Position numbers and translations under genes: made by a program
Shown here: piece by piece, positions 1,578 to 44,487 of the stretch
Numbering within the stretch: position 1 is the first letter of the stretch
How the letters are laid out: each line of letters opens with the position of its first letter
Notes under the pieces: generated by a model
Told to the model about the DNA's origin: nothing
What the model saw: only the letters and a program-made list of their open reading frames with translations
Databases searched by the model: none
Origin: Escherichia phage vB_EcoS-K1_SXAU_B4
Reading direction: 5' to 3' (one strand)
Sequence record: OQ696342.1
DNA: 44,581 bases

Positions 1578-1969
1578 TTCACCTTGTTGGCTTCTTCGTT
1601 AATGAGTTGCTGGAAGCGAGACACATTAGTCCTGACAACCCCAGCGGGCGCCTGTTGCGACCAACCATACTCCAGCCGTTGAGCATACGGTAGATTATTT
1701 GTCAGCGTGAACTCACGCCAGTCGGCGGCTTTCAGTACGAAACTTGTAGCGTTTCCAATAGCTATGTTTCCTGATTTATCCGTAGCGTCTGTAGTTCCGG
1801 AAGCAGGAGTACCACCAGACGCCATCCAGTTCATACGAAAGCGGCCAGTATCTACCGGACTCGCCTTTATGATAGCGGAAAACAGCTTGATAGACACCTG
1901 ACGCATCACCTTCTCAGGGTTCTTCTTCGCCTTTTCCACGAACTTAGAGACATCAAGCGCGAAACTCAT
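1574..1969 (-). CDS. Head-tail joining / tail completion protein (HK97 gp10-like)
   Basis: 131 aa; a VDTGRFR-type motif recalled from the HK97 gp10 family; 4-nt overlap with downstream gene. Confidence 0.5.
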   Translation of the reverse strand: MSFALDVSKFVEKAKKNPEKVMRQVSIKLFSAIIKASPVDTGRFRMNWMASGGTPASGTTDATDKSGNIAIGNATSFVLKAADWREFTLTNNLPYAQRLEYGWSQQAPAGVVRTNVSRFQQLINEEANKVK

Positions 1970-2379
1970 TTTCTCACCTGAATAAAATACGCCACGACAT
2001 CATCGTTAACCATCTTCTTCTCGATGGCTACGACCGACCATTGCTCGCCACCGAATTGGACTTTGTCTTCCATCTTCGGAACGACGCTGTGATCGGCTTT
2101 AACAATCATGTCACCGGCCTGAATCGTCGTACCGTTTACCAGTCCCGCGTTTACCGGAACCGGAACGGCCTTCAACGGCAACACTTCATCGTCAGACCAG
2201 ACGAACTCACCGAGAACCTCATCCCATACTTTCGAGCCAGCGCGAATCAGAGATACCGTGCTACCGAATTTGGTTAGCAGGCGTGTGCCAACGCCTTGCA
2301 TACGTTTACTGAAAGCGGTGCCCATTACGCGGCCTCCAGTCTCGAAATAACCAGTAGCGCGGATGGTGCGGTCCCCCAT
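1966..2379 (-). CDS. Head-tail adaptor-like protein
   Basis: 137 aa ORF within the neck cluster; assigned by position. Confidence 0.45.
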   Translation of the reverse strand: MGDRTIRATGYFETGGRVMGTAFSKRMQGVGTRLLTKFGSTVSLIRAGSKVWDEVLGEFVWSDDEVLPLKAVPVPVNAGLVNGTTIQAGDMIVKADHSVVPKMEDKVQFGGEQWSVVAIEKKMVNDDVVAYFIQVRK

Positions 2380-2939
2380 GCAGTTACGGCAGCCGCTTGA
2401 GGGTATACACCGCCGAAGTCACTCCCGGCGCTATCCCGCATAATCTGAACGGCAAACGTCTGGCCTGCGGTCGGGTTAATAACGACGCGGGACTCAATCG
2501 GGATCGTCATGTCAGCGCTTACCAGTTTTGTGGCAGCGGGCGAGCCGTACTGAGCACCGTTGATGAGGATGCGTGATAGCAGGATGGACGTCCCGCTAGC
2601 ACCAGTGCGTCCAGCCTGTAACTTGATGCGCACGGCGTAGTTACCCGCTGTGTTGAACGTAACCAGCCCCGCAGCATTAATCATTACTGGGTCAGATGCG
2701 CCCCCCTGAGCAGAGCCGAAAGTTAACTGCAATGCCGTATCTGTCGCAGTGGGCGCTTGTATCACGGTCGACGCGGCACGGAGAACTTCAACCTCTTTCA
2801 CCCCGTGAGTGGCGTAAATAGGTGAGTCCGCCATCTGCGTCATTACCTCGCGCAGTGCTGCTGGAGTAATAAGTCCGGTAGTGTTATCGGGAAGATTTGC
2901 TCCAATAAGGGTAAACATCTCTGTTTTAGTCTTCGCCAT
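2325..2939 (-). CDS. Structural (neck/head completion) protein, hypothetical
   Basis: 204 aa ORF in the structural operon. Confidence 0.5.
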   Translation of the reverse strand: MAKTKTEMFTLIGANLPDNTTGLITPAALREVMTQMADSPIYATHGVKEVEVLRAASTVIQAPTATDTALQLTFGSAQGGASDPVMINAAGLVTFNTAGNYAVRIKLQAGRTGASGTSILLSRILINGAQYGSPAATKLVSADMTIPIESRVVINPTAGQTFAVQIMRDSAGSDFGGVYPQAAAVTAWGTAPSALLVISRLEAA

Positions 2940-2941
2940 TT

Positions 2942-3454
2942 TTAGCCCCGGTACACGTTAAACGAGAAGCCATTATTAAGTCCGCCGCACAGTAACGGGC
3001 GTAAAGCGTCGTCCGCAGCGGTGATCGAGGTCGTAGCGCCACTGTTGCCGTTGTTGAAGTAGGTCACTGTCACCGCGCCTTCTACGCGCTCGGTCTGCAC
3101 GGAGCGACCGTCCGAGTTAGCCCTCACCTCCGTACCTGAGCCATATGTAACGGCGGCGATTACCTGCGCAAGAATCACCTGCTTCGGGATGACATTGTTC
3201 ACTACAGGGAACCCGTTTAGCATTACGCCAGTGCGCGGGTACGCAAGAGACTGTTCGGCGGATACACGACGACCGCACATCTGCGGTTCTGCAAGCCCGA
3301 CATAAGTAGCGCCGTTGCGCAGGGCCACTTCCGCGGCGGTATCGTCTTCCGGTAGCTCAAGGCCATAATTAGCCGCTAACGCGCGGGCGTCAGCCAGACT
3401 AATGTAACTGTCGGCGCCAGGTACTATTGACCCATCTTCCACGATTAGCGGCAT
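2942..3454 (-). CDS. Structural protein, hypothetical
   Basis: 170 aa ORF in the structural operon. Confidence 0.5.
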   Translation of the reverse strand: MPLIVEDGSIVPGADSYISLADARALAANYGLELPEDDTAAEVALRNGATYVGLAEPQMCGRRVSAEQSLAYPRTGVMLNGFPVVNNVIPKQVILAQVIAAVTYGSGTEVRANSDGRSVQTERVEGAVTVTYFNNGNSGATTSITAADDALRPLLCGGLNNGFSFNVYRG

Positions 3455-4073: not shown

Positions 4074-5129
4074 TTAACCTTGAGACCCTACACCAGTTAC
4101 CAGGAAGGCAATCGGTACATGCTTACGGTCAACAACGCGGTTCCAGTTGGAGGCATTCGCCAGGTCCTGCCAGGAAGCGGAGCGCGGGGTAGTCTCGGTG
4201 CCGTTGCCGGTGATTACCGCGCTGGTGAAGCTGTAGCCCAGTGGGTGCAGCAACCAGGTCTTACGGGTCCACAGGGTTTCTACGCCGCCGCCGTTGCCGC
4301 GGGACGCTTCACGATCGTATTCCAGCGGGTTGGACGGAGAACCTTCACCGTAACCGATAGCGCCGTTGCCGAAGATGATGGAGATGAACTTACGGCTTGA
4401 GCCGGTGCCAACTACGGTCATGCTGTCGTCAACAATCACGCGGTAGCCCTGGTAGGTGGCGAACAGGGTGTCGTTGTCAGCGTTCTTGATGAAGTCAATA
4501 AGCTGCTGCTTACGGGCCTGCGCATAAACGAAGCTGTGCATCGCGATAGCACCCAGCACTTCACCACCGTTGCCCATCAGAGCATCACCCATAGTCTGGG
4601 TAGCGTCGATGAACGCACCTGCGTCGAAGCCCAGAGAAGCAGACACGTCGATAACCATATCGTTCTGCGTATGGTATTCATCGGTAGTGGCTACGTTGTC
4701 GTTGTACAGCCCGAGCGCGGTAGCAATCAGACGGCGTTGCGCCTGGCGCTGCCAGAAGTTATCCAGACGGGCCGCTACGGATTTCAGCGGGTCTTGGCGG
4801 GTAAGTTCAACAGTCAGGTCCGCCTGACCGAAACCTTCGTTCAGGTAGGCAACGCGGGCCATCATCTCACCGGTCTGCACATTACGCAGGGTAGCGATGT
4901 CCTGGTATACATCGTTCGAGTAGTTAGGCTCAATAGAAGTATCAATCGCTTTCCAGAAAGGAATGTTGGCGATGTTGGACGGGCCGCGAGCAATCTCGGC
5001 AGCGTATGGGGTCGGGGTCAGAATACCGGACTGGAAGAACGCGGTTTTTTCTACCGGGTCCTCGGTCATATAAGACGCCAGGACCGGGATGTTGCCAGTT
5101 ACGATATCGCCGATAGTGGTAATTGCCAT
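4074..5129 (-). CDS. Major capsid protein
   Basis: 351 aa, directly after the scaffold gene; terminator-like hairpin downstream; assigned by position and size. Confidence 0.75.
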   Translation of the reverse strand: MAITTIGDIVTGNIPVLASYMTEDPVEKTAFFQSGILTPTPYAAEIARGPSNIANIPFWKAIDTSIEPNYSNDVYQDIATLRNVQTGEMMARVAYLNEGFGQADLTVELTRQDPLKSVAARLDNFWQRQAQRRLIATALGLYNDNVATTDEYHTQNDMVIDVSASLGFDAGAFIDATQTMGDALMGNGGEVLGAIAMHSFVYAQARKQQLIDFIKNADNDTLFATYQGYRVIVDDSMTVVGTGSSRKFISIIFGNGAIGYGEGSPSNPLEYDREASRGNGGGVETLWTRKTWLLHPLGYSFTSAVITGNGTETTPRSASWQDLANASNWNRVVDRKHVPIAFLVTGVGSQG

Positions 5130-5131
5130 TA

Positions 5132-5887
5132 TTATTTCCTCAGGGCTTTAAGTTGCCGTTCAAATTCGGCAGGGTTCGATTTATACAGAGCTAAACGCTC
5201 CGCTTCACTCATGTCTTTAAACGCTGGTGCGGCCCCGCCGCCTTTGCTACCGGAAGCCCCGCCGCCGGAAGCTGCATTTGCTTTAATCAAATGCGAAAAC
5301 GCTTTGTGTTCACGCAGGTATTTGCGGAACTGTTCCGGGTCAGTTGTGATTACATTGCCATCTGCGCCAACAAACTTAGTAACCACGTCATCACCTTCGA
5401 ACTCAGTCTTAACGAACGGAGCAAGGATGTCCACTGCTTCCGGGGTAATAAAGTCACCTGCGAAAGAGCCTAACACCGCTTTACGTTCGCTGCCGAGGAT
5501 GCGCTCTGCCATTCTGGAGATGCGGCCATCTTTCTCGGCTAACACCGGGTCATACTGGCTACGAATCGTTTTTTCGAACTCATCCATCTTACCAGCGGCT
5601 TTTAACGCCTCCTGGTGTGCGCGCTGCCGTTCTTCTTCGGCCTCTTTTGCTTTACGAGCGGCTTCTTTCTTCTCCGCCAGCAATGCTTCCTGATTAGCCT
5701 TAAGCCCGGCCACTTCTTTCTCAATCAGTGCCTGAACTTCTTCAGCGGTGAACATTTTCGGCGCATCACCGCCGCCAGATTTATCTTCTGCCCCAGCTTC
5801 TTCCCGGAACGGATAACGTAAAAAACGATTCATAGTCAGTATGTCCCCTGGACGTTGGAACCCGGGCCACCCGGATTTACATGTCAA
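5132..5887 (-). CDS. Scaffolding protein
   Basis: 251 aa, charged and coiled-coil-like (EKKEAARKAKEAEEERQRAHQEALK), upstream of the capsid gene; true start may be the internal MNRFLRYPF. Confidence 0.6.
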   Translation of the reverse strand: MTCKSGWPGFQRPGDILTMNRFLRYPFREEAGAEDKSGGGDAPKMFTAEEVQALIEKEVAGLKANQEALLAEKKEAARKAKEAEEERQRAHQEALKAAGKMDEFEKTIRSQYDPVLAEKDGRISRMAERILGSERKAVLGSFAGDFITPEAVDILAPFVKTEFEGDDVVTKFVGADGNVITTDPEQFRKYLREHKAFSHLIKANAASGGGASGSKGGGAAPAFKDMSEAERLALYKSNPAEFERQLKALRK

Positions 5888-6730: not shown

Positions 6731-6759
6731 TTGCACACACCAATATAATAGGGTACTAT
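6731..6759 (+). promoter_or_regulatory. Sigma70-type promoter TTGCAC-N17-TACTAT (cassette family copy)
   Basis: -35 at 6731..6736, -10 at 6754..6759; conserved leader with RBS GGAG 7 nt before ATG 6787. Confidence 0.6.
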
Positions 6760-6786
6760 TCAGTTATCGAAACGAGGAGATGAAAA

Positions 6787-7308
6787 ATGGTTACTACAGT
6801 AATTACTTTCCCCGCGTATGTAGGGGCAAAAATCTGCAGGGCGAAAAATGATGTGCGCTATTATTTGAATGCGTTTTACATAGACCCGGAAGGGTGGATA
6901 GTGTCTACGGACGGCCATAGATTGTTCTGCGACAATGTTAAGACAAACGTCGAGAATGGGGTTCTCATAGACATCAAAGGGAGAGAGCCTTCTAAATTTA
7001 ACTACGCGGAGGTAGACCACGACAACGGCAGTGTATCTTTCTATGACGGCAGTCGTGCGCTTATATGTACACTTCCGGTGGATGTTGTAGACGGAAAATT
7101 TCCTGACTGGCGACGTGTTGCGCACATCACGCCGGGGGCGGTTGATAGCATAGGATTCACCATGTCCTACTTGGCAGACGCGCACAAGATTTCTAAGGCA
7201 TACAAAAATGAAATTGCTCGTTTCGATTTCCAGGACCAAACCAGAGGATGCAAAATATCGTTTTCAAACACTGCATTTATGGTGCTAATGCCGGCGCGAT
7301 TTAAATAA
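6787..7308 (+). CDS. Truncated beta sliding clamp (DnaN-like) protein
   Basis: 173 aa; motifs DVRYYLN, TDGHRL, VDGKFPDWRRV, SIGFTMSYL and C-terminal MVLMPARF match, in order, remembered E. coli DnaN motifs (QDVRYYLNG, ATDGHRLA, VDGRFPDYRRV, EIGFNVSYV, YVVMPMRL); covers roughly domain II and part of domain III only. Confidence 0.7.
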   Translation: MVTTVITFPAYVGAKICRAKNDVRYYLNAFYIDPEGWIVSTDGHRLFCDNVKTNVENGVLIDIKGREPSKFNYAEVDHDNGSVSFYDGSRALICTLPVDVVDGKFPDWRRVAHITPGAVDSIGFTMSYLADAHKISKAYKNEIARFDFQDQTRGCKISFSNTAFMVLMPARFK

Positions 7309-7312
7309 AACT

Positions 7313-7335
7313 AAGGCCCCGTAATGGGGCCTTTT
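7313..7335. terminator. Bidirectional rho-independent terminator (aggcccc-gtaat-ggggcct + TTTT)
   Basis: GC-rich 7-bp stem flanked by an A-run upstream and a T-run downstream, between convergent genes. Confidence 0.7.
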
Positions 7336-7798: not shown

Positions 7799-8901
7799 TA
7801 TTCCCCTTTCAGATAATCAGCAACACGTTTATCGAGTTCCGCCATCTGCTTAAGCGTGAGCGGATTCCCGAAACCATCTACAGATATTACGCGAAACTCT
7901 TCCGGCGATATACCGCTGTTGCGGAAAATCTTACCGCGAACAGGGCCGAGCGCCTGGTCCTGAAACCATGCAGGTTGTTGTTTCAGGAACTCGTAATAAG
8001 TGGTGTCGGCGCTTACCTGAGTACCGCCGTCCGCACCTTTAGCCGCTCGTTTCGCTCCTACGTCCAGGAAGTCGAACTCGGAACTGATTACAGGGGCTGT
8101 GCACGACCGGCAATTCGGATGGGCGGGAGGCATCGGCCCTTTACCGATTTCCCACGTCATCCCATCTCTGGCCTTGCAAACGGCTGAGGTCCTAGAATCA
8201 AGAGTAGACACCCACTCGTACTTCTCGATGATGTCGTCGTTCTGGCGGTACGTCTCGTTGCGAGCTTCGTTGGATACGTGAGACAGCGCGGTGCGGATTA
8301 CTGTGGCTGCGTTACGTTCAGAGATGTCCGCCAGCCCGCCCGCGCCTACTACATTCTTAACAATCTGCCGTGTTGTCTGGCCTTGTACGAAACCCATCTT
8401 AACGCCAGTTACAAGACGTGCTACTTCCGTTTCACCCCAGCCCGACATCAGTTTAGTGAAGTCAACAGGCTTGTCGCTCAACGATAGCGGTTGAAACTCG
8501 GCAGCAGCCCACACCTGTTCAGCGGTAGGCGTAACAAATTCCGCATCTACGTTGGCGGTCAGTGTCTTTACGTTCCATTCAGCCTCATACGCCGCCAGCT
8601 CCTTAAGGTCTTCTGTCAGCTTTGTTTGCCAGTCACCTGTAAGTCCAGTTAGCGCTTCTTCGAGGTCACGTAACAGTTTATTCAGCCGGGCGGTGCTGCG
8701 ACCTTCGTCGCCAAATAGCAGAACCTGCCGTTTGATTTCGTCGCGCATTTCCTGAATGAACGGCGCAAGGTCTTTCACTTCACCGGAAGCGGTGCGTTGT
8801 AGCCATATCTGGTGGCTGATTAAGGATGTAAGTAAGCTCATAGGCCCTCCTGTAGTATCGACAGTGTAACGCATAAAAATAATATTTGCAGACACCAACA
8901 T
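7798..8901 (-). CDS. Head morphogenesis protein (Mu F-like / SPP1 gp7-like minor head protein)
   Basis: 367 aa; LDSRTSAVCKARDGMTW...PPAHPNCRSCTAP matches the Mu F family motif; downstream of the portal gene. Confidence 0.8.
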   Translation of the reverse strand: MLVSANIIFMRYTVDTTGGPMSLLTSLISHQIWLQRTASGEVKDLAPFIQEMRDEIKRQVLLFGDEGRSTARLNKLLRDLEEALTGLTGDWQTKLTEDLKELAAYEAEWNVKTLTANVDAEFVTPTAEQVWAAAEFQPLSLSDKPVDFTKLMSGWGETEVARLVTGVKMGFVQGQTTRQIVKNVVGAGGLADISERNAATVIRTALSHVSNEARNETYRQNDDIIEKYEWVSTLDSRTSAVCKARDGMTWEIGKGPMPPAHPNCRSCTAPVISSEFDFLDVGAKRAAKGADGGTQVSADTTYYEFLKQQPAWFQDQALGPVRGKIFRNSGISPEEFRVISVDGFGNPLTLKQMAELDKRVADYLKGE

Positions 8902-8914
8902 AATAGGGTACTAT
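8886..8914 (+). promoter_or_regulatory. Sigma70-type promoter TTGCAG-N17-TACTAT (cassette family copy)
   Basis: Near-identical to the 6731 and 41818 cassettes; leader TTATCGAAACGAGAGATAAGGAATTTAGAAATG. Confidence 0.6.
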
Positions 8915-8948
8915 TCACTTATCGAAACGAGAGATAAGGAATTTAGAA

Positions 8949-9134
8949 ATGACTAACACATACGAACTTACTACAAAGAACGTACAGGCGTATGAAGTTG
9001 TGGAAAACGGCCCAGACTCTACGGATTATGTGGTCGCTGTAGTAAAAGGCGAGAATGCCGCTCTGCTGCGAGCCTCCGCCATGCAAGAGGAAAACGGCTA
9101 CCTCGGATATGGATATACAATTCGTAAGGCCTAA
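8949..9134 (+). CDS. Hypothetical protein (moron island)
   Basis: 61 aa; plus-strand ORF inside the minus-strand structural module, behind a cassette promoter. Confidence 0.45.
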   Translation: MTNTYELTTKNVQAYEVVENGPDSTDYVVAVVKGENAALLRASAMQEENGYLGYGYTIRKA

Positions 9135-9172
9135 GGGCCTTACCTTAATAATTATTTAATCGGAGGTGTGCT

Positions 9173-9403
9173 ATGCGTTGTGGGGTTAAAAAACTCTATG
9201 CAGAAAAAGGGGTTATCGGCGTCTCTTTTATGGTTGTTGATGATGTTGTGTACCACAGTCTTCCAGGTGTAAAAGTTGGCAACAGGTACACGTGGTACAA
9301 AACAAATTCAGGGCTGGAATTTATAGACAGTCTTGTTGCGAAAGGTGTGATTAAACAGGTAGATTGTGACTGGAAGTTTAAACAACCAGTAATACACTTC
9401 TGA
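9173..9403 (+). CDS. Hypothetical protein (moron island)
   Basis: 76 aa ORF; RBS GGAGG upstream. Confidence 0.45.
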   Translation: MRCGVKKLYAEKGVIGVSFMVVDDVVYHSLPGVKVGNRYTWYKTNSGLEFIDSLVAKGVIKQVDCDWKFKQPVIHF

Positions 9404-9412
9404 GAAATCACC

Positions 9413-9721
9413 ATGCGGAAAAGAAAGAAGACTACTAAAAAATACGCGTACAGATATCTTGTCGGGGATTCTAGCGAGTTCCCGGATTCAGAAGACTACG
9501 ATACATTTAAAGCTGTTATATTCGCCAGCGGATGTGTTTATGTGTGCCAACATTACGACGTCGACGCTCCGCAAACAATACACATCCTGTACGCCGATTT
9601 CAGAACGTCTGAATGGATGAAATCATGGTTCAATGGTTTTACAGATTCAATAATATCAAGAGATATTGGCAATCATAAACTCGTAGCGCTAAGGGAAGTC
9701 TGGAAAACTAAGGCCCCATAA
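9413..9721 (+). CDS. Hypothetical protein (moron island)
   Basis: 102 aa ORF followed by a strong terminator. Confidence 0.45.
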   Translation: MRKRKKTTKKYAYRYLVGDSSEFPDSEDYDTFKAVIFASGCVYVCQHYDVDAPQTIHILYADFRTSEWMKSWFNGFTDSIISRDIGNHKLVALREVWKTKAP

Positions 9722-9733
9722 CGGGGCCTTTTT
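9710..9733. terminator. Bidirectional rho-independent terminator (aaggcccc-ataac-ggggcctt + TTTTT)
   Basis: GC stem plus T-run between the plus-strand island and the minus-strand portal gene end. Confidence 0.7.
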
Positions 9734-17996: not shown

Positions 17997-18160
17997 TTAC
18001 CCCGAACTCGTTGATGATTTGCGCCTTGTAGAAGTTGCCGTTTGAGGCCAGGTGGTACGCCTGCACCATTGTCATCTCGCGATAAGTTGCTGCGCTGTTT
18101 TCGAATTCCATAACCATCAAAGTAACCATCTTCTGTCTCTCCTCTCGTTTGTGTAAATGA

Positions 18161-18189
18161 ATAGTAGCCTAGTCTATCCCAGTGTGCAA
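18161..18189 (-). promoter_or_regulatory. Sigma70-type promoter TTGCAC-N17-TACTAT on the minus strand (cassette family copy)
   Basis: Reverse complement gives TTGCAC (18189..18184), 17-nt spacer, TACTAT (18166..18161); followed by leader AAACGAGAGGAG and ATG 18129. Confidence 0.55.
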
Positions 18190-18521
18190 GTAAATTTTAT
18201 TGGTGTTTGTATTGTTGCATCTCCTGCAATAGTCGCTTCGATTGTTGCGTTTAACTTAGTGTCGCCTTTTGACGACACTAAGTTAAAGTTGTACGCTGCT
18301 GTGTAGCAGCGTAAGACACAAAGACAAATAGTAAACTATTGACCTGTTACACCACCTGTTACACCGGCCCGATATTGCGCTCCGGCTTTCCACGCCCGCC
18401 ACGCGAGACGCGTCTTAACGTTCAGGTATGCTTTCTTTGGTCCCTTGTTAACCGGCAACCCCTCGACGATGGCCCACCGTTCAAATGCTTGTCTCATAAA
18501 TCAACCCCCACAATTAAAATA

Positions 18522-19147: not shown

Positions 19148-19181
19148 TTCTAAATTCCTTATGTCTCGTTTCGATAAGTGA

Positions 19182-19210
19182 ATAGTATCCTATTATATTG
19201 GGGTGTGCAA
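19182..19210 (-). promoter_or_regulatory. Sigma70-type promoter TTGCAC-N17-TACTAT on the minus strand (cassette family copy)
   Basis: Reverse complement: TTGCAC (19210..19205), 17-nt spacer, TACTAT (19187..19182); leader TCACTTATCGAAACGAGACATAAGGAATTTAGAAATG. Confidence 0.6.
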
Positions 19211-19443
19211 GAGAATAGTTACGTTGCCGTTGAGATTCTTCAGGTGGGGTTGTGCCTTTATTCTTATTACTTGGTAACTAAAGGGCAGGCCCTAAGCCTG
19301 CCCAATAATCGTTACATTTTTACTGTTGCGAATCTACGGCACATTAAGAAACAGTAGATATTTCAGTGGGTTACTTTTTTAAATGAGATTTAGATACACT
19401 TATCCTTAAACCCCAAGGCAAGCATCTCAGCTGTCTGGGAGGG

Positions 19444-19475
19444 GTTGACGAATCCCTCGGGGAGGGTTCGTCAAC
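19444..19475. promoter_or_regulatory. 32-bp near-perfect palindrome GTTGACGAA-tccctcggggaggg-TTCGTCAAC in the divergent intergenic region (candidate operator or structured element)
   Basis: 9-bp perfect inverted arms plus an inner ccctc/gaggg inverted repeat. Confidence 0.4.
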
Positions 19476-19569
19476 TCCGTAATATATACAAGTCCCAAAA
19501 CCATTATACAAACATGTGTCAAGAACTTTCAATAACTTTTTTGTAAAGATTAAATATTGCAGGGATTGG

Positions 19570-19598
19570 TTGCTTTTACATTCCCGCTATCCTATACT
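19570..19598 (+). promoter_or_regulatory. Candidate sigma70 promoter TTGCTT-N17-TATACT for the plus-strand replication operon
   Basis: Hexamers with 17-nt spacing, about 30 nt upstream of the ATG at 19630. Confidence 0.45.
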
Positions 19599-19629
19599 CA
19601 GCTTCACCAAACAAACAGGAGATATAGAA

Positions 19630-19812
19630 ATGCAACATTACATGACACAGAATGAAGTAGCCGAGCGTATTGGGGTAACGCGTCAGACAATTAATAACTG
19701 GTTGCGCAGTGGTAAATTCCCTGACTGCTGTATTAAGGTTATGGGTCGCCGTTTACCAGGTACATTTGACCGTAATAAAGTTGAAGAATGGATTAAGGAG
19801 AATGTGAAATGA
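19630..19812 (+). CDS. Small HTH DNA-binding protein (AlpA/Xis-like)
   Basis: 60 aa from ATG 19630 (RBS GGAG); TQNEVAERIGVTRQTINNWLRSGKFP is HTH-like; the longer ORF from 19516 would start upstream of the promoter. Confidence 0.55.
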   Translation: MQHYMTQNEVAERIGVTRQTINNWLRSGKFPDCCIKVMGRRLPGTFDRNKVEEWIKENVK

Positions 19813-20099
19813 AAGGTGTAATTTTCCACAATAAAGCAGAAAACGAAGTGTATATGGTTCACTCCGTGGCGGGAGAGTTCGCTTTATGCTTCAACATCTC
19901 TTGCCACCTCGATACCTACCGGCCTTTCTGTGTAGAAACAGAAATGAAGCTAATTAGCTTACGCCAACTAAGCACCATGTCGGCGTCGCTTAACGTAAGA
20001 GATAATCTCGAGTATATCGACTTCTATTTCGGCGATGATTTGGTCGAGGAATATTTTGAAGAGTATAAAAATTTGCTGGAAGAGTTGGCTAAACGGTAA
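19809..20099 (+). CDS. Hypothetical protein
   Basis: 96 aa; ATGA-type overlap with the upstream gene. Confidence 0.5.
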   Translation: MKGVIFHNKAENEVYMVHSVAGEFALCFNISCHLDTYRPFCVETEMKLISLRQLSTMSASLNVRDNLEYIDFYFGDDLVEEYFEEYKNLLEELAKR

Positions 20100-20293
20100 A
20101 AAGAAACCCCAACGCCAGAACGTCGGGGCTAAAGTACAAATCATCAAAGTAAGCACAAGGATTATACAATGGCAAAGTTAATAGTTCCACAGCTACGCCG
20201 CCAGAAACACGGCGCTGATTTCTTCGCACCGGTAAAGATGAACCGAGCAATGCGTCGTATGCAGGAAGCCTTAGAACGTGCGGAGAAAAAGAA

Positions 20294-22501
20294 ATGAATA
20301 TTGTTTTTGCAACGCTGCGTAACACATTCGATAAAAACCCTGTAGAGCGTGAAATGCCGCTGGAGCAGTTCGTAGAGTATGTCTGCGATACATCGAAGCG
20401 TTTGGCCGTAGACCCGTCGTGGACTAAGGAAGAGTACGACGCCGCCAAGATTAAGCAGAAGGCTATTGCTCCTGTTGGCGGTCGCCGTAAGAACGCTATT
20501 CTGGAAGACAGTGTGGTTAAGTTCGACTTCGACCATCTCAACCGTACTCAGTACCGCGACCTTACCCGCAAATTCAAGAACGCGCCGTTCTTCAATATTC
20601 TGCACACAACGGCATCGCATCAGCACGCGTGTAAAAACGGGGATTACGCATTCCGCGTTCTGGTTCCGGCTCGCACGCCGTTTAACTCTAACGACGCGTG
20701 GATGGTGCAACGTGCTATTTGTGCAGAGTTAGGGATAGACGAAGCGCTGCGCGACCACTGCACGGAAGACGGCAACCGCCTTATCTACCTGCCGCATAAA
20801 GAGTCGAAGATAACGGTTACAGAAGGGCGTGTTATCCGTGCCGCGCGGTACATCAAGAAAGCCGAAGAAATGGGGTTGCGTAAGCGTGAGGCTAAAACAC
20901 TTGCTTCCGATGAGCATGGGCTTAACGCTGATATAGCGCATTTCTGCGAAGCCGAGCTTGGCCTTGATGCGTTATCTTCCGGGCGCGGGTATGAAGTGCC
21001 ATGCCCCAACGAGCATCTGCACACGGGCAAAGGCTCCACCAGCATCATGCTCGACGGTAAAGAAGTGCGCTTCGTGTGCCAGCACACGAACAATGGCGCT
21101 TGCACCGAGCTTAACCGCCGGCAACATTTGGCCCTGCGTATGTGCGGTCTTCCGGATGAGCTTAACGTAGACAAGCAACCTATCAGTATTAACAGCATTC
21201 GTGCGGCTCTGCCTGATTTACCGGATGAAGAGATTGAAGAACTGCACCGCACAGAGAACGAGGAGCCTGTAACTTGTACACTGGAAGACCTTGAAGACGA
21301 TGACGAGTTACCTGAACCGGTAAAGGCTGATTTCGTCGTTGAAGGGTACATGCCGTCGGATTGCATCTGGGACATCGTCGGGGAGTCAGGCACGTACAAA
21401 TCATTCTATACGCTGGGGATGATGTACCTTAGCGCCGCCGGATACCGGTTTGCAGGCGCTGACACACAGCGTTGCCACCATTTCTATATCGACGGTGAGG
21501 GTGGCGCAGCTACCCGCACACGTATAGATGCGCTCGCGGCTAAGTATGGCGAGGAAGGTAAAGATTATGTACACGTCATCGATATGGGTGAAGTCGGAAA
21601 ACTGAAAAACCTGATTAAGTTAATGCGTGAAACTGCTGGCGATGAACCAATTGGCATGGTTGCGTTCGACACCCTAAACCAGACCCTGGCCCTGACGATT
21701 GATAAGTTCGACGAGAACAGTTCATCGACGGCAATCGGCATGGGTAAAGTTATCGCCATCCTGAAAGAAGTACGCGATGCTACTAAAGCCGCAGTAGGCG
21801 TTGTTCACCATACCCCGAAGGGTGGAAAGAAAGCCCGCGGCAGTGGAGCATTGTATGCTGGCGTCGATGTGGAACTGACAATTGAACGCGCCACTGACCG
21901 TCAAATAAACGTATACCACTCAAAATTTAAGCACGGGCCTCAACAGAAAACGGTTGGCATGGTGCTGGAGTCGGTACAGTTCCGCGAAGCACCGCCGCCG
22001 AAAGAGTACCGTGCGGTTGAGTTCCTCGGTAGCACAGAGGAATACGGCACAATCGTAAACCTCGACCTGCCGGAACCACACAAGGCGCTTGTTCTGATGC
22101 CGTGGGGCTTCGAGCCGTTCAAAACTGACGAGGAGAAAGAGCGGGAAGAAGGGTTAACTAACGAAGGTAAACAAAAAGTAAAGGAAGAAGTTAAACGCGG
22201 CAGGGATGAAGTAAGGAAGGAGTCGATACTTTCGGCACTGGAAGACCTGCAACAGTCAGATGACACAGGTCGCGGTTTTACTCAGCAGCAGATAGTGGCC
22301 CGTTCCGGTGACTTTTCTGTGACTAACACCCATCTTGATAAAATGCTGAAAGATGGGGAACTAATGCTAGGCTGCGACGCTAATGGCGAAGTAGTACCGA
22401 GAACATATCGTATACCCGAAAGAATAGGAGATAGGTTAAGGCCGAAGACGATATACGAGCCAAATGAGATGCTGATAGTGACAGAGGAAGATTTAGAATA
22501 G
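20294..22501 (+). CDS. DNA primase/helicase (N-terminal primase-like domain with a Cys/His cluster, C-terminal RecA/DnaB-like ATPase)
   Basis: 735 aa; CPNEHLHTGKGS...CQH zinc-binding-like cluster; Walker A-like GESGTYKSF; acidic C-terminus. Confidence 0.75.
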   Translation: MNIVFATLRNTFDKNPVEREMPLEQFVEYVCDTSKRLAVDPSWTKEEYDAAKIKQKAIAPVGGRRKNAILEDSVVKFDFDHLNRTQYRDLTRKFKNAPFFNILHTTASHQHACKNGDYAFRVLVPARTPFNSNDAWMVQRAICAELGIDEALRDHCTEDGNRLIYLPHKESKITVTEGRVIRAARYIKKAEEMGLRKREAKTLASDEHGLNADIAHFCEAELGLDALSSGRGYEVPCPNEHLHTGKGSTSIMLDGKEVRFVCQHTNNGACTELNRRQHLALRMCGLPDELNVDKQPISINSIRAALPDLPDEEIEELHRTENEEPVTCTLEDLEDDDELPEPVKADFVVEGYMPSDCIWDIVGESGTYKSFYTLGMMYLSAAGYRFAGADTQRCHHFYIDGEGGAATRTRIDALAAKYGEEGKDYVHVIDMGEVGKLKNLIKLMRETAGDEPIGMVAFDTLNQTLALTIDKFDENSSSTAIGMGKVIAILKEVRDATKAAVGVVHHTPKGGKKARGSGALYAGVDVELTIERATDRQINVYHSKFKHGPQQKTVGMVLESVQFREAPPPKEYRAVEFLGSTEEYGTIVNLDLPEPHKALVLMPWGFEPFKTDEEKEREEGLTNEGKQKVKEEVKRGRDEVRKESILSALEDLQQSDDTGRGFTQQQIVARSGDFSVTNTHLDKMLKDGELMLGCDANGEVVPRTYRIPERIGDRLRPKTIYEPNEMLIVTEEDLE

Positions 22502-22510
22502 GTAAAAAGA

Positions 22511-22529
22511 AAGGGGCATTAAGCCCCTT
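22511..22529. terminator. Hairpin aaggggc-attaa-gcccctt with a T-run on the minus strand; terminator between convergent genes
   Basis: 7-bp GC stem; plus-strand A-run upstream becomes a T-run on the minus strand. Confidence 0.55.
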
Positions 22530-22734
22530 CACCTAGCGCCAGCCACTTGGCGTCTACTTGCAGCACTTCCGCCAGTTTAAACAGCGTCGCAGGGCGGACG
22601 TCCTGAGTTACCCCAAGTGCCAGCTGGTTAATAGCGCCCTGGGAAACGCCGGTAAGGACCGCCAGGCGGCGCTGGGAGATGCCGAGTTCTTTACGGCGTT
22701 GTTCTACACGGATACCTAGTTCAGATGGTTGCAT
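22519..22734 (-). CDS. XRE-family (Cro/CI-type) HTH transcriptional regulator
   Basis: 71 aa; QRRLAVLTGVSQGAINQLALG is a classic HTH; encoded divergently from the downstream plus-strand genes. Confidence 0.75.
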   Translation of the reverse strand: MQPSELGIRVEQRRKELGISQRRLAVLTGVSQGAINQLALGVTQDVRPATLFKLAEVLQVDAKWLALGEGA

Positions 22735-22798
22735 GTCAGTTACTCCTTAGTCAGTTGATATGTGAATAGTACCATATTAATTATTTTAGAAAAGCCCA

Positions 22799-22828
22799 TT
22801 GACAACATGAATAGTTCGCTATTATAGT
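22799..22828 (+). promoter_or_regulatory. Sigma70-type promoter TTGACA-N18-TATAGT with an AATAG-N4-CTATT core in the spacer
   Basis: -35 at 22799..22804, -10 at 22823..22828; leader AAACGAGAGGAGAGAAACAAATG. Confidence 0.55.
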
Positions 22829-22859
22829 TAACCCATACCAAACGAGAGGAGAGAAACAA

Positions 22860-23330
22860 ATGTTAGAGAAATTCTTAGTATTACTGGAACGTTTCGTAGT
22901 TGCGCATGAACTTATTGCGGCGAATAGCGTGAAACAGGTTGTCGTTGCTGAAACTGCAACAATCGAGACTACTGTTTCGAAAGAAGCAACAAAAGAAATC
23001 CCGGTCGAAGGCGAAGACATCGTCGACACTAAACCGGCAGAAGAAGAGAAGCCCAAACGCAAGCCGCGTAAAGCTAAAGTAGAGGAACCGACGCCAGAGA
23101 CGGAAGAAGAGAAAGAAGAAGTCGATTATCAGTCTCTGCGCGACCAGATTCAGGCTATCGACGATGCAATTAACGAAGGTCCGAGCGATGCCGCGTGCGA
23201 TGATTCCGATGAACTGCTGGAAGAGTTCACCGGTAAGAAGATGAAGATTGCCGCGATTAAAGACGAAGACCTGGCTGAATATCTTGAACGCCTGACAGCA
23301 ATCAAGAACAAGTATTTCGAAGAAGAATAA
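22860..23330 (+). CDS. Highly acidic hypothetical protein
   Basis: 156 aa; long D/E-rich stretches (EEEKPKRKPRKAKVEEPTPETEEEKEE...). Confidence 0.5.
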   Translation: MLEKFLVLLERFVVAHELIAANSVKQVVVAETATIETTVSKEATKEIPVEGEDIVDTKPAEEEKPKRKPRKAKVEEPTPETEEEKEEVDYQSLRDQIQAIDDAINEGPSDAACDDSDELLEEFTGKKMKIAAIKDEDLAEYLERLTAIKNKYFEEE

Positions 23331-23373
23331 CTACCCCGCGGCCTTCTGGCCGCTTTAACTGAGGGTCGGAAAT

Positions 23374-25395: not shown

Positions 25396-25399
25396 AGTG

Positions 25400-25428
25400 T
25401 TGACACCTGAATAGTTAGCTATTATATT
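25400..25428 (+). promoter_or_regulatory. Sigma70-type promoter TTGACA-N17-TATATT with an AATAG-N4-CTATT core
   Basis: -35 at 25400..25405, -10 at 25423..25428, upstream of the SSB-like gene. Confidence 0.55.
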
Positions 25429-25484
25429 TCTAATCACTGGCCGGGCAGCTTCCCGGAGTAAACTGAAAACTGAGGAATCGAGAA

Positions 25485-26111: not shown

Positions 26112-26131
26112 TATCTGAATCAATTTAACTA

Positions 26132-26154: not shown

Positions 26155-26170
26155 CTAAGGGTCGAAAATA

Positions 26171-29625: not shown

Positions 29626-29924
29626 CCCAGGAAGGCAAGATTCAGAAATACGCAAAAGAGCGATTCGAGGCCATCGGTGGCCTCGTTCGCAAATTGTCGT
29701 ACGAAAATAGAGCAGGCGCTCCTGACCTGCTGGTAATTCTCCACGGCGGCGTCATCTGGTTCGTCGAGGTTAAGAAAGACGAGAACACGAAGCCAGACCC
29801 ACACCAGTTACGGGAGCACGAGCGGATGCGTAAGCGTGGCGCAAATGTTTTTGTCGTCGGTTCGTTTAAACAGGTTGACGCCCTAATAGCAGACTATTAT
29901 AGTAGTCATACACCAACAATATAA
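29622..29924 (+). CDS. VRR-NUC domain nuclease
   Basis: GAPDLLVILHGGVIWFVEVKK matches the VRR-NUC PD-(D/E)xK pattern; start placed at ATG 29622 (ORF track begins at TTG 29607). Confidence 0.7.
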   Translation: MTQEGKIQKYAKERFEAIGGLVRKLSYENRAGAPDLLVILHGGVIWFVEVKKDENTKPDPHQLREHERMRKRGANVFVVGSFKQVDALIADYYSSHTPTI

Positions 29925-29935
29925 GGAATTGAGAA

Positions 29936-32503: not shown

Positions 32504-32523
32504 AAGGCCCCGTTTGGGGCCTT
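32504..32523. terminator. Bidirectional terminator hairpin (aaggcccc-gttt-ggggcctt)
   Basis: 8-bp GC stem between the convergent replication and tail modules. Confidence 0.6.
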
Positions 32524-41817: not shown

Positions 41818-41846
41818 TTGCACACCCCAATATAATAGGGTACTAT
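41818..41846 (+). promoter_or_regulatory. Sigma70-type promoter TTGCAC-N17-TACTAT (cassette family copy)
   Basis: Near-identical to the 6731 and 8886 cassettes. Confidence 0.6.
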
Positions 41847-41876
41847 TCACTTACACCAACAATGAAGGGGTTTAAA

Positions 41877-42068
41877 ATGTCCAGTTTACCAGTTTCCTTA
41901 ATTCTGTTCGCACTGCTTGCTTATTTCGCACCTTTCCTGGTTGCGTACTTCCGTAATCATAAAGCGAAGTTAGCGATATTCATGGCCAATCTGTTTCTTG
42001 GTTGGATTCTGCTGCCGTGGGTATTTATTTTAATCTGGGCGTGCAACTCGAATGTTAACGAGAAGTGA
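41877..42068 (+). CDS. Small membrane protein, superinfection-immunity (Imm)-like
   Basis: 63 aa from ATG 41877 (RBS AAGGGG); YFAPFLVAYFRNHKAKLAIFMANLFLGWILLPWVFILIWA resembles the remembered Imm family pattern; the ORF track starts at 41862. Confidence 0.5.
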   Translation: MSSLPVSLILFALLAYFAPFLVAYFRNHKAKLAIFMANLFLGWILLPWVFILIWACNSNVNEK

Positions 42069-42106
42069 GCTAGCATAGGACAAATCCTAAACACGAGGAC
42101 GTAAGC

Positions 42107-43237
42107 ATGGCCCAGAAGAAAATAACCGACGAACAGTTACAGGAAGAATTGAACGCCGGAGTTAAAACTATCGATATAGCCCGTAAATACTGCATCTCAG
42201 ACCGCGTTATTCGTATACGTAAAGCTAAGCTGGCTAAGAAAGGCGTGGGGCACGGTCGCGACGTTAGTCATCTTGTGCCAGACGGTTACAAGATTAAAGG
42301 CACGTCGTCACTGGTAGACGAGTTCGGCAACACTAAGCTGCAATGGGTTAAGACCGACACCGATGCTGAACGTCAGGTCGAGTTGATGAAAGCCGTAATT
42401 GAAGGCATGAAGTCGGAGATTACGCCAGTTTCACCGGTTAAAGCAGCCCGCGCCAAACGTGATGACAAACTACTTAATCTTTACACTGTGTCTGATTTCC
42501 ATCTCGGTATGCTGGCGTGGGCCGACGAGAGCGGCGACGACTGGGATATGAAAATTGCGGAAGACCTGTTCTCCCGTTGGTTTGACGCAGCGTTTCAGAA
42601 AGCGCCTGACGCGGGAACAGGGGTTATTAACCTGCTGGGTGACTTCGCGCACTTCGATAGCCTGGATGCCGTTACACCTGAGTCGCGTCACGTGTTGGAC
42701 GCAGACACTCGCTACCAGAAACTTGTCCGCTACATGATTCGTATGGTCCGCCGTGTGGTAGATATGGCGCTGGTTAAACATAAAACCGTTCGCTTGCTTA
42801 TCGTACAAGGGAACCATGACCCTGTAGGCTCTGTATGGCTGGCAGAAATGTTCACGACTTTATACTCAAACGACAGCCGAGTGATTGTCGATACGTCGCC
42901 GGATGTTTACAAGATGGTGCAACACGGCAAAACGACTCTGTTCTTTCATCATGGGCATAAAGCACGATTCGACGCTATTGAACCAGTTATGATTGCCAAG
43001 TTCCGAAAAGCATTTGGCGAGAGTGTTTACAGCTACGCCCACGTAGGCCACCTGCACCATCAGAAGATTGTAGAAAGCCGTAACATGATTGTTGAGCAGC
43101 ACCGCACCCTTGCGGCGAAAGACGCCTACGCCTCTCGCGGTGGATGGATGTCGGCCCGGAGTGCAAATGTAATTACTTATAGCGCCGAATATGGTGAGGT
43201 CGCACGTTTAACTATTTCACCGGAGATGCTGGGATGA
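42107..43237 (+). CDS. Calcineurin-like metallophosphoesterase with an N-terminal HTH-like region
   Basis: 376 aa; motifs VSDFHLG, LLGDFAHFD, QGNHD, HHGH, GHLHH. Confidence 0.65.
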   Translation: MAQKKITDEQLQEELNAGVKTIDIARKYCISDRVIRIRKAKLAKKGVGHGRDVSHLVPDGYKIKGTSSLVDEFGNTKLQWVKTDTDAERQVELMKAVIEGMKSEITPVSPVKAARAKRDDKLLNLYTVSDFHLGMLAWADESGDDWDMKIAEDLFSRWFDAAFQKAPDAGTGVINLLGDFAHFDSLDAVTPESRHVLDADTRYQKLVRYMIRMVRRVVDMALVKHKTVRLLIVQGNHDPVGSVWLAEMFTTLYSNDSRVIVDTSPDVYKMVQHGKTTLFFHHGHKARFDAIEPVMIAKFRKAFGESVYSYAHVGHLHHQKIVESRNMIVEQHRTLAAKDAYASRGGWMSARSANVITYSAEYGEVARLTISPEMLG

Positions 43238-43719
43238 AAGATATTGTAATTTTCGATTTAGATGGAACATTAGCAGACGGTACGCATCGCTTACACCTGT
43301 TGCCGAAAGATAACTACAACGAAACATGGGCGTGGAAACCATTTAACATGGCGTGCAAAGATGATGCGCCGATTAAAGATAACATCGAACTGTGTAACGC
43401 TCTTAATCGTCGCTATGCCGTTATTATTTTAACCGGCCGCAGTGATGACGCAGAAAAAGAAACAAGAATGTGGCTGCAGCGCCACCGCGTCGAATTTTAT
43501 CAGCTAATCATGCGTAGCAAACACGACAACAGAAAAGACATCGTAATTAAAGAAGAGGTGTTGCGCGCTATCGGGCTGGAAAGAATCTTGTGCGCATTCG
43601 ACGACTCGCCAGCGGTGATTAAGCATTTCCGTGGCTTAGGAATCACGACGCACGCGGTTACTGAATACGACTGTAACGGGAACTCTACACACTTAAAATC
43701 ACACGGGAGCGATAAATAA
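43234..43719 (+). CDS. HAD-family phosphatase (nucleotidase / polynucleotide 3'-phosphatase-like)
   Basis: 161 aa; FDLDGTL (DxDGT motif I), ILTGRS (motif II), FDDS (motif IV). Confidence 0.65.
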   Translation: MKDIVIFDLDGTLADGTHRLHLLPKDNYNETWAWKPFNMACKDDAPIKDNIELCNALNRRYAVIILTGRSDDAEKETRMWLQRHRVEFYQLIMRSKHDNRKDIVIKEEVLRAIGLERILCAFDDSPAVIKHFRGLGITTHAVTEYDCNGNSTHLKSHGSDK

Positions 43720-44288
43720 TGGCTAAGGTAATTATTCTTAATGGTCCTGCGGGTTGCGGGAAAGACACACTTGCTATGGCACTGGTAGAAATGGGCTTTG
43801 CGAAAGGAACTACCAGTTTCAAGAATCCAATGTTCAATATCGCTCTGGCGGCGTTAGGCCCGGATGTTTACCACGAGTTTCTCGACGGCTACGACGACCG
43901 GGCGCGGAAAGAAAAGCCAGAAGGCTTCCTTAATGGCTTGTCGCGGCGTCAGTTCATGATTGCTATATCTGAGCAATTCATTAAACCGGTACTTGGTAGT
44001 GATTATTTCGGTAAGTATCTTGCTGAAAACTTGCCAGACGGCGACGAAGTTTTTGTAGTGTCCGACGGCGGGTTCTCCAGCGAAGTAGCCCCTATCGTCG
44101 CCGCGGGTCATGATGTAAGAATCGTTCGCCTGCACCGAGAAGGCTATACGTTTGAGGGGGACAGCCGCGGTTATCTGTATGATATTGAGGGGGTAGTACA
44201 TCATGACGTCGCCGTCGTTCCGGGCGAGATTACATTAACGGCGGCTGCGATTGCTAATAGAATCCTAGGTATTTACCCAAATGCGTGA
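43719..44288 (+). CDS. P-loop kinase, dNMP kinase-like (T4 gp1-like)
   Basis: 189 aa; P-loop GPAGCGKDT resembles T4 dNMP kinase GVKRSGKDT. Confidence 0.6.
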   Translation: MAKVIILNGPAGCGKDTLAMALVEMGFAKGTTSFKNPMFNIALAALGPDVYHEFLDGYDDRARKEKPEGFLNGLSRRQFMIAISEQFIKPVLGSDYFGKYLAENLPDGDEVFVVSDGGFSSEVAPIVAAGHDVRIVRLHREGYTFEGDSRGYLYDIEGVVHHDVAVVPGEITLTAAAIANRILGIYPNA

Positions 44289-44295
44289 GGGCACA

Positions 44296-44457
44296 ATGGG
44301 AACAATATACGTTATCCGCGTATATGACGAAGAATGGGATGAGTGGGTTGATATTTACGCCGTAGGTAGCAAGGAAGAGGCCGCAAAAGAGATGACAGAA
44401 CGGAGTGACAGAGGTCAGTTAACTAACTTCTACGAAATGCCATTCAAAAGTGAGTAA
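44296..44457 (+). CDS. Small acidic hypothetical protein (53 aa)
   Basis: Manually found ORF (MGTIYVIRVYDEEWDEWVDIYAVGSKEEAAKEM...) followed by a terminator hairpin. Confidence 0.3.
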   Translation: MGTIYVIRVYDEEWDEWVDIYAVGSKEEAAKEMTERSDRGQLTNFYEMPFKSE

Positions 44458-44462
44458 GAAAA

Positions 44463-44487
44463 AGGCCCCGAAAGGGGCCTTAGTTTT
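44463..44487. terminator. Bidirectional terminator hairpin (aggcccc-gaaa-ggggcct, then TTTT)
   Basis: GC stem with a GNRA-like loop between the plus-strand island and the minus-strand tail gene end. Confidence 0.6.

Follow-up and report, generated by a model that had tools for sequence, protein, structure and literature searches.

Morons, a concept that Hendrix and Juhala formed for lambdoid phages, classically belong to temperate phages, where the prophage expresses them to the advantage of the lysogen. In the T4-type phages, promoter early stem-loops (PeSLs) are repeats that combine a sigma-70-like early promoter, A/T-rich in its upstream sequence, with a stem-loop terminator. They reach to the Shine-Dalgarno (SD) sequence and ATG of the downstream gene, precede ORFans, lie at boundaries of indels and replacements between close relatives, and were proposed by Arbiol et al. 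(2010) and Comeau et al. (2014) to mediate modular shuffling by homologous recombination (PMC2839356; PMC4122927). Among the Kagunaviruses, the record of phage fBC-Eco01 annotates an element as ‘phage promoter predicted by PHIRE’, with the consensus tgAATAGTa-ccTATTat-T and seven copies ascribed to a phage-encoded RNA polymerase (PMC9825357), and the paper on phage Golestan also lists seven PHIRE promoters (PMC7203180). In this work we analyse the 44,581 nt of sequence record OQ696342.1 (hereafter the window), the complete genome of the Kagunavirus (Guernseyvirinae) Escherichia phage vB_EcoS-K1_SXAU_B4, where the same element heads three plus-strand gene islands embedded in the minus-strand structural module and two small-gene operons on the minus strand. 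Our best explanation, which we hold to be rather likely, is a joint one: sigma-70-type promoters and bidirectional terminators would bracket exchangeable slots and act as homology arms, a palindrome within the promoters would be the operator of a Cro-like protein, and the trio of small open reading frames (ORFs) at 8949-9721 would be a payload of one of the slots.

The cassette TTGCA[CG]-N17-TACTAT has exactly five matches in the window, at 6731, 8886 and 41818 on the plus strand (slots B, C and A, respectively) and at 18189 and 19210 on the minus strand (operons E2 and E1), where 0.01 would be expected, and this number was reached in none of 100 shuffles; a scan of the window with a position weight matrix of these copies brings up no other, more diverged one above background. 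Once aligned, the copies agree over a block of about 46 nt (TTGCACACCCCAATATAATAGGGTACTATTCACTTATCGAAACGAG) that extends beyond the two hexamers, the upstream region of the TTGCAC-17-TACTAT copies is A/T-rich, and the plus-strand cassettes directly precede the SD sequence and ATG of the units embedded in the structural module. Two types of leader are conserved up to the ATG before different genes, of which type 1 (CTTATCGAAACGAGAGATAAGGAATTTAGAAATG) precedes the E1 gene and the first ORF of slot C alike, and type 2 (GTTAACTTAAACAGGAG...ATG) at least four unrelated genes. The predicted start site of type 1 falls inside a CTTATC...GATAAG inverted repeat, which the other copies lack, and Rfam matches no known RNA element anywhere in the window. 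The first-pass annotation, made from the letters of the window, had placed five near-identical cassettes at these positions and had described the leaders of the genes at 8949 and 19147 as almost identical through the start codon in spite of their different proteins. Both descriptions are accurate, as the 8886 and 19210 copies share 61 of 66 positions from the -35 box through the ATG and are unrelated from the second codon onwards. Its reading of the cassette as a promoter is supported as far as it goes: the geometry is of the sigma-70 type (TTG-N20-TAnnnT) and the position before SD and ATG points the same way, but the cassette seems to be more than a promoter, for it embeds a palindrome common to unrelated promoters across the genome.

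The consensus published for fBC-Eco01 is the reverse complement of ATAATAGGGTACTATTCA, the core of this cassette. Were the repeats promoters for a phage-encoded RNA polymerase, as the paper on that phage has it (PMC9825357), it would be easy to see why the dominant repeat that PHIRE detects in relatives is this motif and why the record speaks of a phage promoter. We find this hardly tenable, given that the genome has no RNA polymerase gene (its largest ORF, at 26171-29269, encodes a family A DNA polymerase), that the curated annotations of the relatives Bas70 and Salmonella phage Jersey list no such enzyme, that the spacing of the boxes is canonical for sigma-70, and that the palindrome of Jersey lies within textbook sigma-70 promoters. 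A phage-polymerase promoter set was consequently rejected for want of the gene. We favour instead that the five repeats would be promoters of the host RNA polymerase, of the sigma-70 type, with A/T-rich sequence upstream and a leader running to SD and ATG.

Three of these promoters would pair with a repeated bidirectional terminator and so bracket accessory slots on the opposite strand of the late structural module. All three plus-strand islands end in a GC hairpin, just as had been predicted from the letters, and the hairpins belong to a four-member family in the window (AAGGCCCC-N4-5-GGGGCCTT; expected 0). The full unit, AAAACT-stem-loop-stem-TTT, measures about 27 nt and is present in both orientations, and its RNA stems are predicted to be stable on both strands (-15 to -20 kcal/mol, z from -2.3 to -4.8).

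Relatives differ in what the slots hold. A scan of IMG/VR with the motif core gave 120 loci which, with three GenBank relatives, carry 136 distinct promoter copies; many of these comparison genomes are metagenome-assembled contigs. Assigned by flank signatures and by mapping of the downstream flank, the copies occupy the same five positions as in the window (28 in A, 26 in B, 11 in C, 37 in E1 and 33 in E2). In loci holding both flanking genes, slot A has a promoter-headed island in 14 of 14 (gap of 1790-2940 nt) and slot B in 20 of 22, whilst the 22 loci informative for slot C divide into ten with a promoter-headed cassette of 304-887 nt, nine with 64-77 nt, as against 892 nt in the window, and three with other content. 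The empty slot C of Bas70 keeps a remnant of palindrome and -10 box (AATAGCATACTAT) right beside a hairpin. The cargo takes 11 architectures in 18 islands of slot B and seven in eight islands of slot C. The GC content of island C is 42.6%, compared to 52.7% and 55.3% in its flanks and 50.6% in the genome, and that of the slot B cargo 45.8%; the exonuclease gene of slot A, with 50.4%, is not deviant.

More telling is that four cargo sets, with 84-97% amino-acid identity, are found in slot B in some genomes and in slot C in others. These are a gene for a 173-amino-acid clamp-like protein (slot B in the window and in phage fFiEco03, slot C in fBC-Eco01 and locus L039), the trio of ORFs of 61, 76 and 102 amino acids (slot C in the window and in phage phiWAO78-1, slot B in locus L070), and the proteins F18 (57 amino acids) and F10 (94 amino acids). 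Where the same cargo sits in different slots, identity is about 60% in the flanks, which is the baseline for unrelated sequence, 91-100% in the promoter, 88-90% in the cargo and 75-94% in the terminator; where the same slot holds different cargo, the flanks are 82-92% identical, the promoter 97%, the cargo 36-50% and the terminator 81-88%. Between slots, then, only the promoter, leader and terminator are shared beyond the cargo, which upholds the earlier suggestion that the cassette was copied by recombination, with confirmation from isolates for the clamp-like cargo.

Such a distribution could, in principle, also come from differential loss out of an ancestrally full gene set, or from chimeric assemblies, seeing that empty sites exist and that many of the genomes compared were assembled from metagenomes. 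As short repeats could create chimeric metagenome assemblies, the swap of the clamp-like gene was examined in GenBank records, which are mostly of cultured isolates: 15 independently sequenced records have the slot B junction and seven the slot C junction, the homology between the two groups beginning about 10 nt upstream of the -35 box. An assembly artefact is excluded for this cargo. Moreover, loss alone cannot put one gene at 84-97% identity in two slots, the base composition of island C is deviant, and the junctions fall exactly at the promoter and terminator that the slots have in common. We therefore consider loss or chimerism very unlikely as the source of the slot differences.

Both the promoter, of about 32-46 nt, and the terminator, of about 27 nt, are near-identical between slots and between genomes, and could therefore work as movable homology arms. 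When relatives co-infect a cell, a double crossover or gene conversion would then swap the cargo between the arms, for which the relatives' own single-strand annealing protein (SSAP) and exonucleases would be available. We propose that it is because the arms allow such replacement that cargo differs between close relatives and that the same cargo occurs in different slots. Opposite-strand insertions are also present at equivalent positions of the structural module of Jersey (1845-3224 and 4882-5535), where a homing endonuclease separates TerL from portal, and slot C holds an ‘amidase’ preceded by another promoter that has a palindrome of its own (GGTATATCTATATATACC); the slots themselves would therefore be older than the promoter cassette of the Kagunaviruses.

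The core of the cassette is a 16-bp palindrome, TAATAG-N4-CTATTA, whose distribution goes well beyond the slots. Allowing up to two mismatches, it occurs ten times in the window, as opposed to 1.2 expected, and nine times in Jersey, as opposed to 1.8; the exact core AATAG-N4-CTATT has eight sites in the window (0.01 expected) and is the most frequent 5-N-5 palindrome found de novo in the window, in Bas70 and in Jersey. In cassette promoters its right half overlaps the -10 box (site at about -20 to -5), whereas in a second group, the class II promoters, which have nothing else in common with the cassette, it lies in the spacer (about -26 to -11). The palindromes of Jersey keep the same two registers relative to the -10 box, inside promoters such as TTGACA-N17-TATAGT and TTGATA-N17-TATATT. 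Two copies flank, in the window and in Jersey alike, the gene of a small Cro-like protein, which matches HTH_3 at 1e-12, has 434 Cro and 434 repressor as its closest solved relatives (E 7e-6) and is 36.5% identical to the cro product of a lambdoid Yersinia phage, encoded between cI and cII.

One rival view would be that the promoters are plain strong host promoters, alike through recent duplication or gene conversion, palindrome included, and under no dedicated regulator. The five copies do agree over some 46 nt, including spacer positions that sigma-70 ignores, as common descent would have it, and their variants are mosaic between slots, the TTGCAG/ACACC types being found in both slot B and slot C. 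However, the palindrome is also carried by class II promoters (22809, 25409 and 29884 in the window; 29242 and 32929 in Jersey), for which common descent fails because their -35 and -10 boxes and the register differ and their leaders are unrelated. It is, besides, the most enriched palindrome genome-wide in two genera and flanks the Cro-like gene in both. A lack of any dedicated regulator seems to us unlikely on balance, though it is the strongest of the competing views. The palindrome might otherwise be the site of an activator or host factor that turns the promoters on, making them a middle class instead of early promoters that are later shut off, since the hexamers TTGCAC and TACTAT are non-consensus, as is typical of activator-dependent promoters. 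Against this, a dimer bound within the core promoter, at either register, would normally occlude RNA polymerase, the class II promoters carrying the palindrome are already consensus-like and should need no activation, and the spacers have 17-18 nt rather than the 19-20 nt of MerR-type spacer activators. Activation is thus, in our judgement, a decidedly improbable role for the site.

The palindrome is more probably the operator of a repressor. Its place inside the core promoter suggests occlusion, from which we infer that the Cro-like protein, as the candidate binder, would bind it as a dimer and shut off the whole promoter set, island promoters included. The rationale for such a shut-off would be that the island promoters fire head-on into late structural transcription, and that late transcription has to cross the islands in antisense. 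The more diverged Salmonella phage vB_STM-ZS, also of the Guernseyvirinae, has a Cro-like protein 39% identical to that of the window and lacks TAATAG-N4-CTATTA; its promoters upstream of gp10, gp14, gp20 and gp37 carry (G/T)ATTAGT half-sites, few and irregular, which may reflect co-variation of operator and regulator but are too few to judge. An orphan palindrome (AATAGTTTACTATT) is also seen at 18327-18340, just upstream of promoter E2 (region 18250-18365, minus strand), with no recognisable -35 or -10 box, a tandem repeat of two copies of GGTGTAACAGGT before it and two hairpins after it, resembling the palindrome-plus-hairpin remnant in the empty slot C of Bas70.

Several points weigh against the joint explanation. 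The hexamers of the cassette agree with the sigma-70 consensus at only eight of 12 positions, which is why a generic promoter scan missed them, and promoter activity, timing and termination are all read here from sequence; literature searches, in part loosely constrained, found no transcriptome or map of transcription start sites for the Guernseyvirinae. The identity of copies within a genome could be due to concerted evolution rather than to function. Part of the evidence for swapping comes from metagenome contigs, which are prone to mis-joins at short repeats, and isolates confirm the swap of the clamp-like gene only. The exchange step itself is deduced from junctions. Finally, the Cro-like orthologues of the window and Jersey are 47% identical and differ in residues of the recognition helix, and yet the palindrome is the same, which weakens the assignment of that particular protein.

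The trio in slot C of the window is one rare payload of this slot, being carried by a single one of 50,697 GenBank phage records, that of phiWAO78-1; its slot B form is carried by IMG/VR contig 3300045988_014597. Compared with phiWAO78-1 and L070, its ORFs have no internal stops and ratios of non-synonymous to synonymous polymorphism (pN/pS) of 0.04-0.06 (ORF1), 0.10-0.25 (ORF2) and 0.06 (ORF3), which shows that they are genuine protein-coding genes under purifying selection, even if two of them are near-ORFans; the family of ORF1 is conserved and scattered through unrelated phages and prophages. The absence of a recognisable function, also noted earlier, holds: Pfam has no match for any of the three, PHROGs matches ORF1 alone and with a family without assigned function, and sequence searches of the PDB give no matches. 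Structure prediction, which had been proposed as a check, was helpful in part, for the AlphaFold model of ORF1 is acceptable (a small alpha/beta fold, with a predicted local distance difference test score, pLDDT, of 80.4) and has no PDB fold match below E 0.1, but that of ORF3 is unusable (pLDDT 47.6). To see the trio as candidate anti-defence or host-takeover factors is reasonable given the company it keeps. The hairpin around the stop codon of ORF1 is possibly an attenuator or the junction of two sub-cassettes. In phiWAO78-1 the orthologue of ORF3 differs in length by 2 nt within a stretch of A near codon 8, which is either a frameshift or a homopolymer sequencing error, and its record leaves ORF2 and ORF3 unannotated.

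That company is best seen in the other slots. The slot B cargo of the window is homologous to the middle part only of the bacterial beta sliding clamp, and such a partial clamp could interfere with host replication; the gene is in slot C of fBC-Eco01 and six other GenBank records and is annotated in relatives either as ‘DNA pol III sliding clamp’ or as ‘RusA-like resolvase’. In other genomes the cargo of slots B and C includes an N6/N4 DNA methyltransferase (PF01555, 6e-30) and many uncharacterised small proteins, several of which look secreted, lipoprotein or membrane by inspection of their sequences. In slot A the first gene alternates in relatives between the Imm-like protein and other, unrelated small secreted or membrane proteins, and the distal end between PNK plus dNMP kinase and other genes. 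The description of all three islands as plus-strand morons therefore applies only in part: islands B (6731) and C (8886) fit it structurally, being absent or different in close relatives and, for C, deviant in GC content, but the 41818 island is no moron; it is a conserved DNA-metabolism (exonuclease) operon, present in 14 of 14 relatives, with variable first and last genes.

Table 1. Features of the window discussed in the text (aa, amino acids; a dot marks features given without strand).
Feature	Coordinates	Strand	Remarks
Slot A	41818 to ~44481	+	between tail chaperone and major tail genes
Slot A promoter-leader	41818..41861	+	palindrome 41833-41848
Slot A operon	41862..44457	+	five genes, Imm-like through 58-aa ORF
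Imm-like superinfection-immunity protein	41862-42068	+	68-aa membrane protein; PF14373, 47.6 bits (cut-off 27.9)
DNA repair exonuclease	42107-43237	+	slot A operon
PNK-like protein	43234-43719	+	slot A operon
dNMP kinase	43719-44288	+	slot A operon
58-aa ORF	44281-44457	+	slot A operon
Slot A bidirectional terminator (predicted)	44462..44481	.	same hairpin family, inverted orientation; abuts major tail gene 3' end
Slot B	6731-7333	+	between spanin and Hoc-like genes
Slot B promoter-leader	6731..6786	+	-35 6731-6736; palindrome 6746-6761; -10 6754-6759
Slot B cargo, truncated beta-sliding-clamp homologue	6787..7308	+	173 aa; DnaN residues ~144-255, E 8e-7
Slot B bidirectional terminator (predicted)	7313..7333	.	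hairpin family member
Slot C	8886-9730	+	between head-morphogenesis gene (start 8841) and portal gene (end 9735)
Slot C promoter-leader	8886..8948	+	-35 TTGCAG 8886-8891; palindrome TAATAGGGTACTATTC 8901-8916; -10 TACTAT 8909-8914
Slot C leader	to ATG 8949	+	type 1, SD AAGGA
ORF1, 61 aa	8949..9134	+	small alpha/beta protein, motifs EVVENGPD and YLGYGY
Internal hairpin	9124..9143	+	GUAAGGCC-UAAG-GGCCUUAC; ORF1 stop codon in loop
ORF2, 76 aa	9173..9403	+	near-ORFan: 8 clusters, all >=87% identical
ORF3, 102 aa	9413..9721	+	ORFan: 3 clusters at 90% identity; one representative cluster among 1.84 billion
Slot C bidirectional terminator (predicted)	9710..9730	.	AAGGCCCCATAACGGGGCCTT; overlaps ORF3 stop codon, abuts portal gene 3' end (9735)
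E1 promoter-leader	19148..19210	-	-35 19210-19205; palindrome 19195-19180; -10 19187-19182; heads leftward small-gene operon 19147 to 18336
E2 promoter-leader	18130..18189	-	diverged spacer (ACTAGGCTACTATTC); heads operon starting 18129
Fourth terminator family member	32504..32523	.	convergence of replication module and tailspike gene
Divergent control region	22764..22824	.	two palindromes
Palindrome	22764-22779	.	overlaps -10 of the Cro-like gene's promoter
Palindrome	22809-22824	.	spacer of TTGACA-18-TATAGT (22799-22828), which would drive 22860 onward
Cro-like HTH_3 protein, 71 aa	22519..22734	-	candidate binder of the palindrome
Class II promoter TTGACA-17-TATATT	25400..25428	+	palindrome 25409-25424 in spacer; upstream of SSAP gene
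Class II promoter TTGACG-17-TATAGT	29875..29903	+	perfect palindrome TAATAGCAGACTATTA at 29884-29899

The genome as a whole shares about 90% identity with other phages of E. coli, among them phiWAO78-1, fFiEco03 and the BASEL isolates Bas70-76. Its assembly is circular, the last 87 nt (44495-44581) being the first 87 nt (1-87) again, for a true length of 44,494 bp, and for that reason the 41818 island, which stops at about 44481, runs up to the 3' end of the major tail gene. This gene (minus strand, start 1158) spans the junction and ends at 44486, so that the plus-strand ORFs 38-202 and 212-1117 are spurious antisense artefacts. On the minus strand, the E1 and E2 small-gene operons are followed by the lysis and terminase genes and then by those for portal, head and tail; the replication module (19516-32499) and the three islands are on the plus strand. 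No integrase or CI is listed in the annotations of the relatives Bas70 and Jersey, and the Guernseyvirinae are virulent; the BASEL paper characterises its Kagunavirus isolates by plaque assay, does not describe lysogeny and does not discuss the slots (PMC11990801). Outside the slots, the family A DNA polymerase (plus strand) has 1032 amino acids compared to 726 in Bas70, the surplus being an in-frame insert of about 295 amino acids (residues 448-743; about 27512-28399) with intein-like ends, namely a Cys at the N-terminus (CLHRHTQVL) and, at the C-terminus, VAHN with a Cys after it, for which Pfam has no match. Between the E1 operon and the replication module, the divergent control region holds a long inverted repeat at 19436-19478 (GGGGTTGACGAA...TTCGTCAACTCC) with an inner CCCTC/GAGGG stem, which may be an origin or a regulatory site; the promoter TTGAAA-18-TATAAT (minus strand, 19532-19503) and a terminator (19303-19283) adjoin it.

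Phages of E. coli that are common, small and easy to engineer, the Kagunaviruses are used as candidates for therapy and as chassis for synthetic biology. Three fixed sites in their structural module that accept arbitrary payloads, with a 46-nt promoter on one side and a 27-nt terminator on the other, could serve as insertion points for engineering, and the slots show where variable genes, candidate anti-defence genes included, concentrate. The pairing of palindrome and Cro-like protein offers, in turn, a directly testable hypothesis on the timing of early genes in a virulent siphovirus. The motif has been reported before under a mistaken attribution, to a phage RNA polymerase that does not exist, which this work corrects, and the kind of architecture is known; the arrangement of slots and terminators, the exchange between slots, and the palindrome with its operator regulon appear to have no description for this subfamily in the searchable literature. 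It is tempting to go further and speculate that a single Cro-like repressor, with its operator in each of the promoters concerned, governs all early and middle transcription of the Guernseyvirinae, that the operator-bearing promoter and the universal terminator form a socket through which accessory genes are exchanged among fixed slots of the late operon, with methyltransferases, superinfection-exclusion proteins and a truncated beta-clamp as known or likely payloads, and that the trio is a new host-takeover or anti-defence payload. We regard this extended view as a tentative possibility, on the doubtful side. No existing idea is overturned by these results, which extend modular shuffling of the PeSL type from T4-like myoviruses to a siphovirus subfamily.

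The likeness to PeSLs is indeed close. In both systems the repeats look like sigma-70 promoters with A/T-rich upstream sequence, extend to the SD and start codon of the downstream gene, are tied to stem-loop terminators, and stand before ORFans and other non-essential genes at indel and replacement boundaries between close relatives; both would promote the shuffling of modules through homologous recombination. The differences are of scale and layout. Five promoters and four terminators in a 44.5-kb siphovirus compare with about 50 composite motifs; in occupied slots the hairpin here follows the promoter at 230-2650 nt, with the cargo in between, whereas in PeSLs promoter and stem-loop are fused, an arrangement approached only in the empty slot C of Bas70, where a promoter remnant abuts a hairpin. 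The insertions are here on the opposite strand inside a late structural operon, as opposed to hyperplastic early regions, there is a palindromic operator-like site in the promoter, and recombination between PeSL copies yields encapsidated mini-circles, of which none are known here.

With morons the islands share the apparent make-up of an extra unit with its own promoter and factor-independent terminator, set between genes adjacent in relatives, and, in slot C, a base composition departing from the flanks. In the classical, prophage-expressed sense, however, the term used by the first-pass annotation does not hold, because these phages are virulent and their annotated relatives have neither integrase nor CI; moreover, the early operons of the phage itself use the same promoters, and the slots stay fixed while the cargo moves from one to another. 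As for the lambdoid Cro of 434 and lambda, the 71-amino-acid HTH_3 protein is homologous to 434 Cro and lambdoid Cro, and the putative sites are likewise palindromes of 14-16 bp that overlap core promoter elements, those of the regulator's own promoter included; unlike there, no CI partner or lysogeny switch exists, and the putative sites are dispersed over at least nine promoters genome-wide instead of being clustered in the left and right operators, OL and OR. The PHIRE ‘phage promoters’ of Kagunaviruses (fBC-Eco01, PMC9825357; Golestan, PMC7203180), lastly, are the same motif as the cassette, listed without analysis and ascribed to an RNA polymerase that the genomes do not encode. Taken together, the system is best described as PeSL-like or moron-like promoter-terminator slots in a virulent siphovirus, with a promoter that carries a probable operator of the Cro type.

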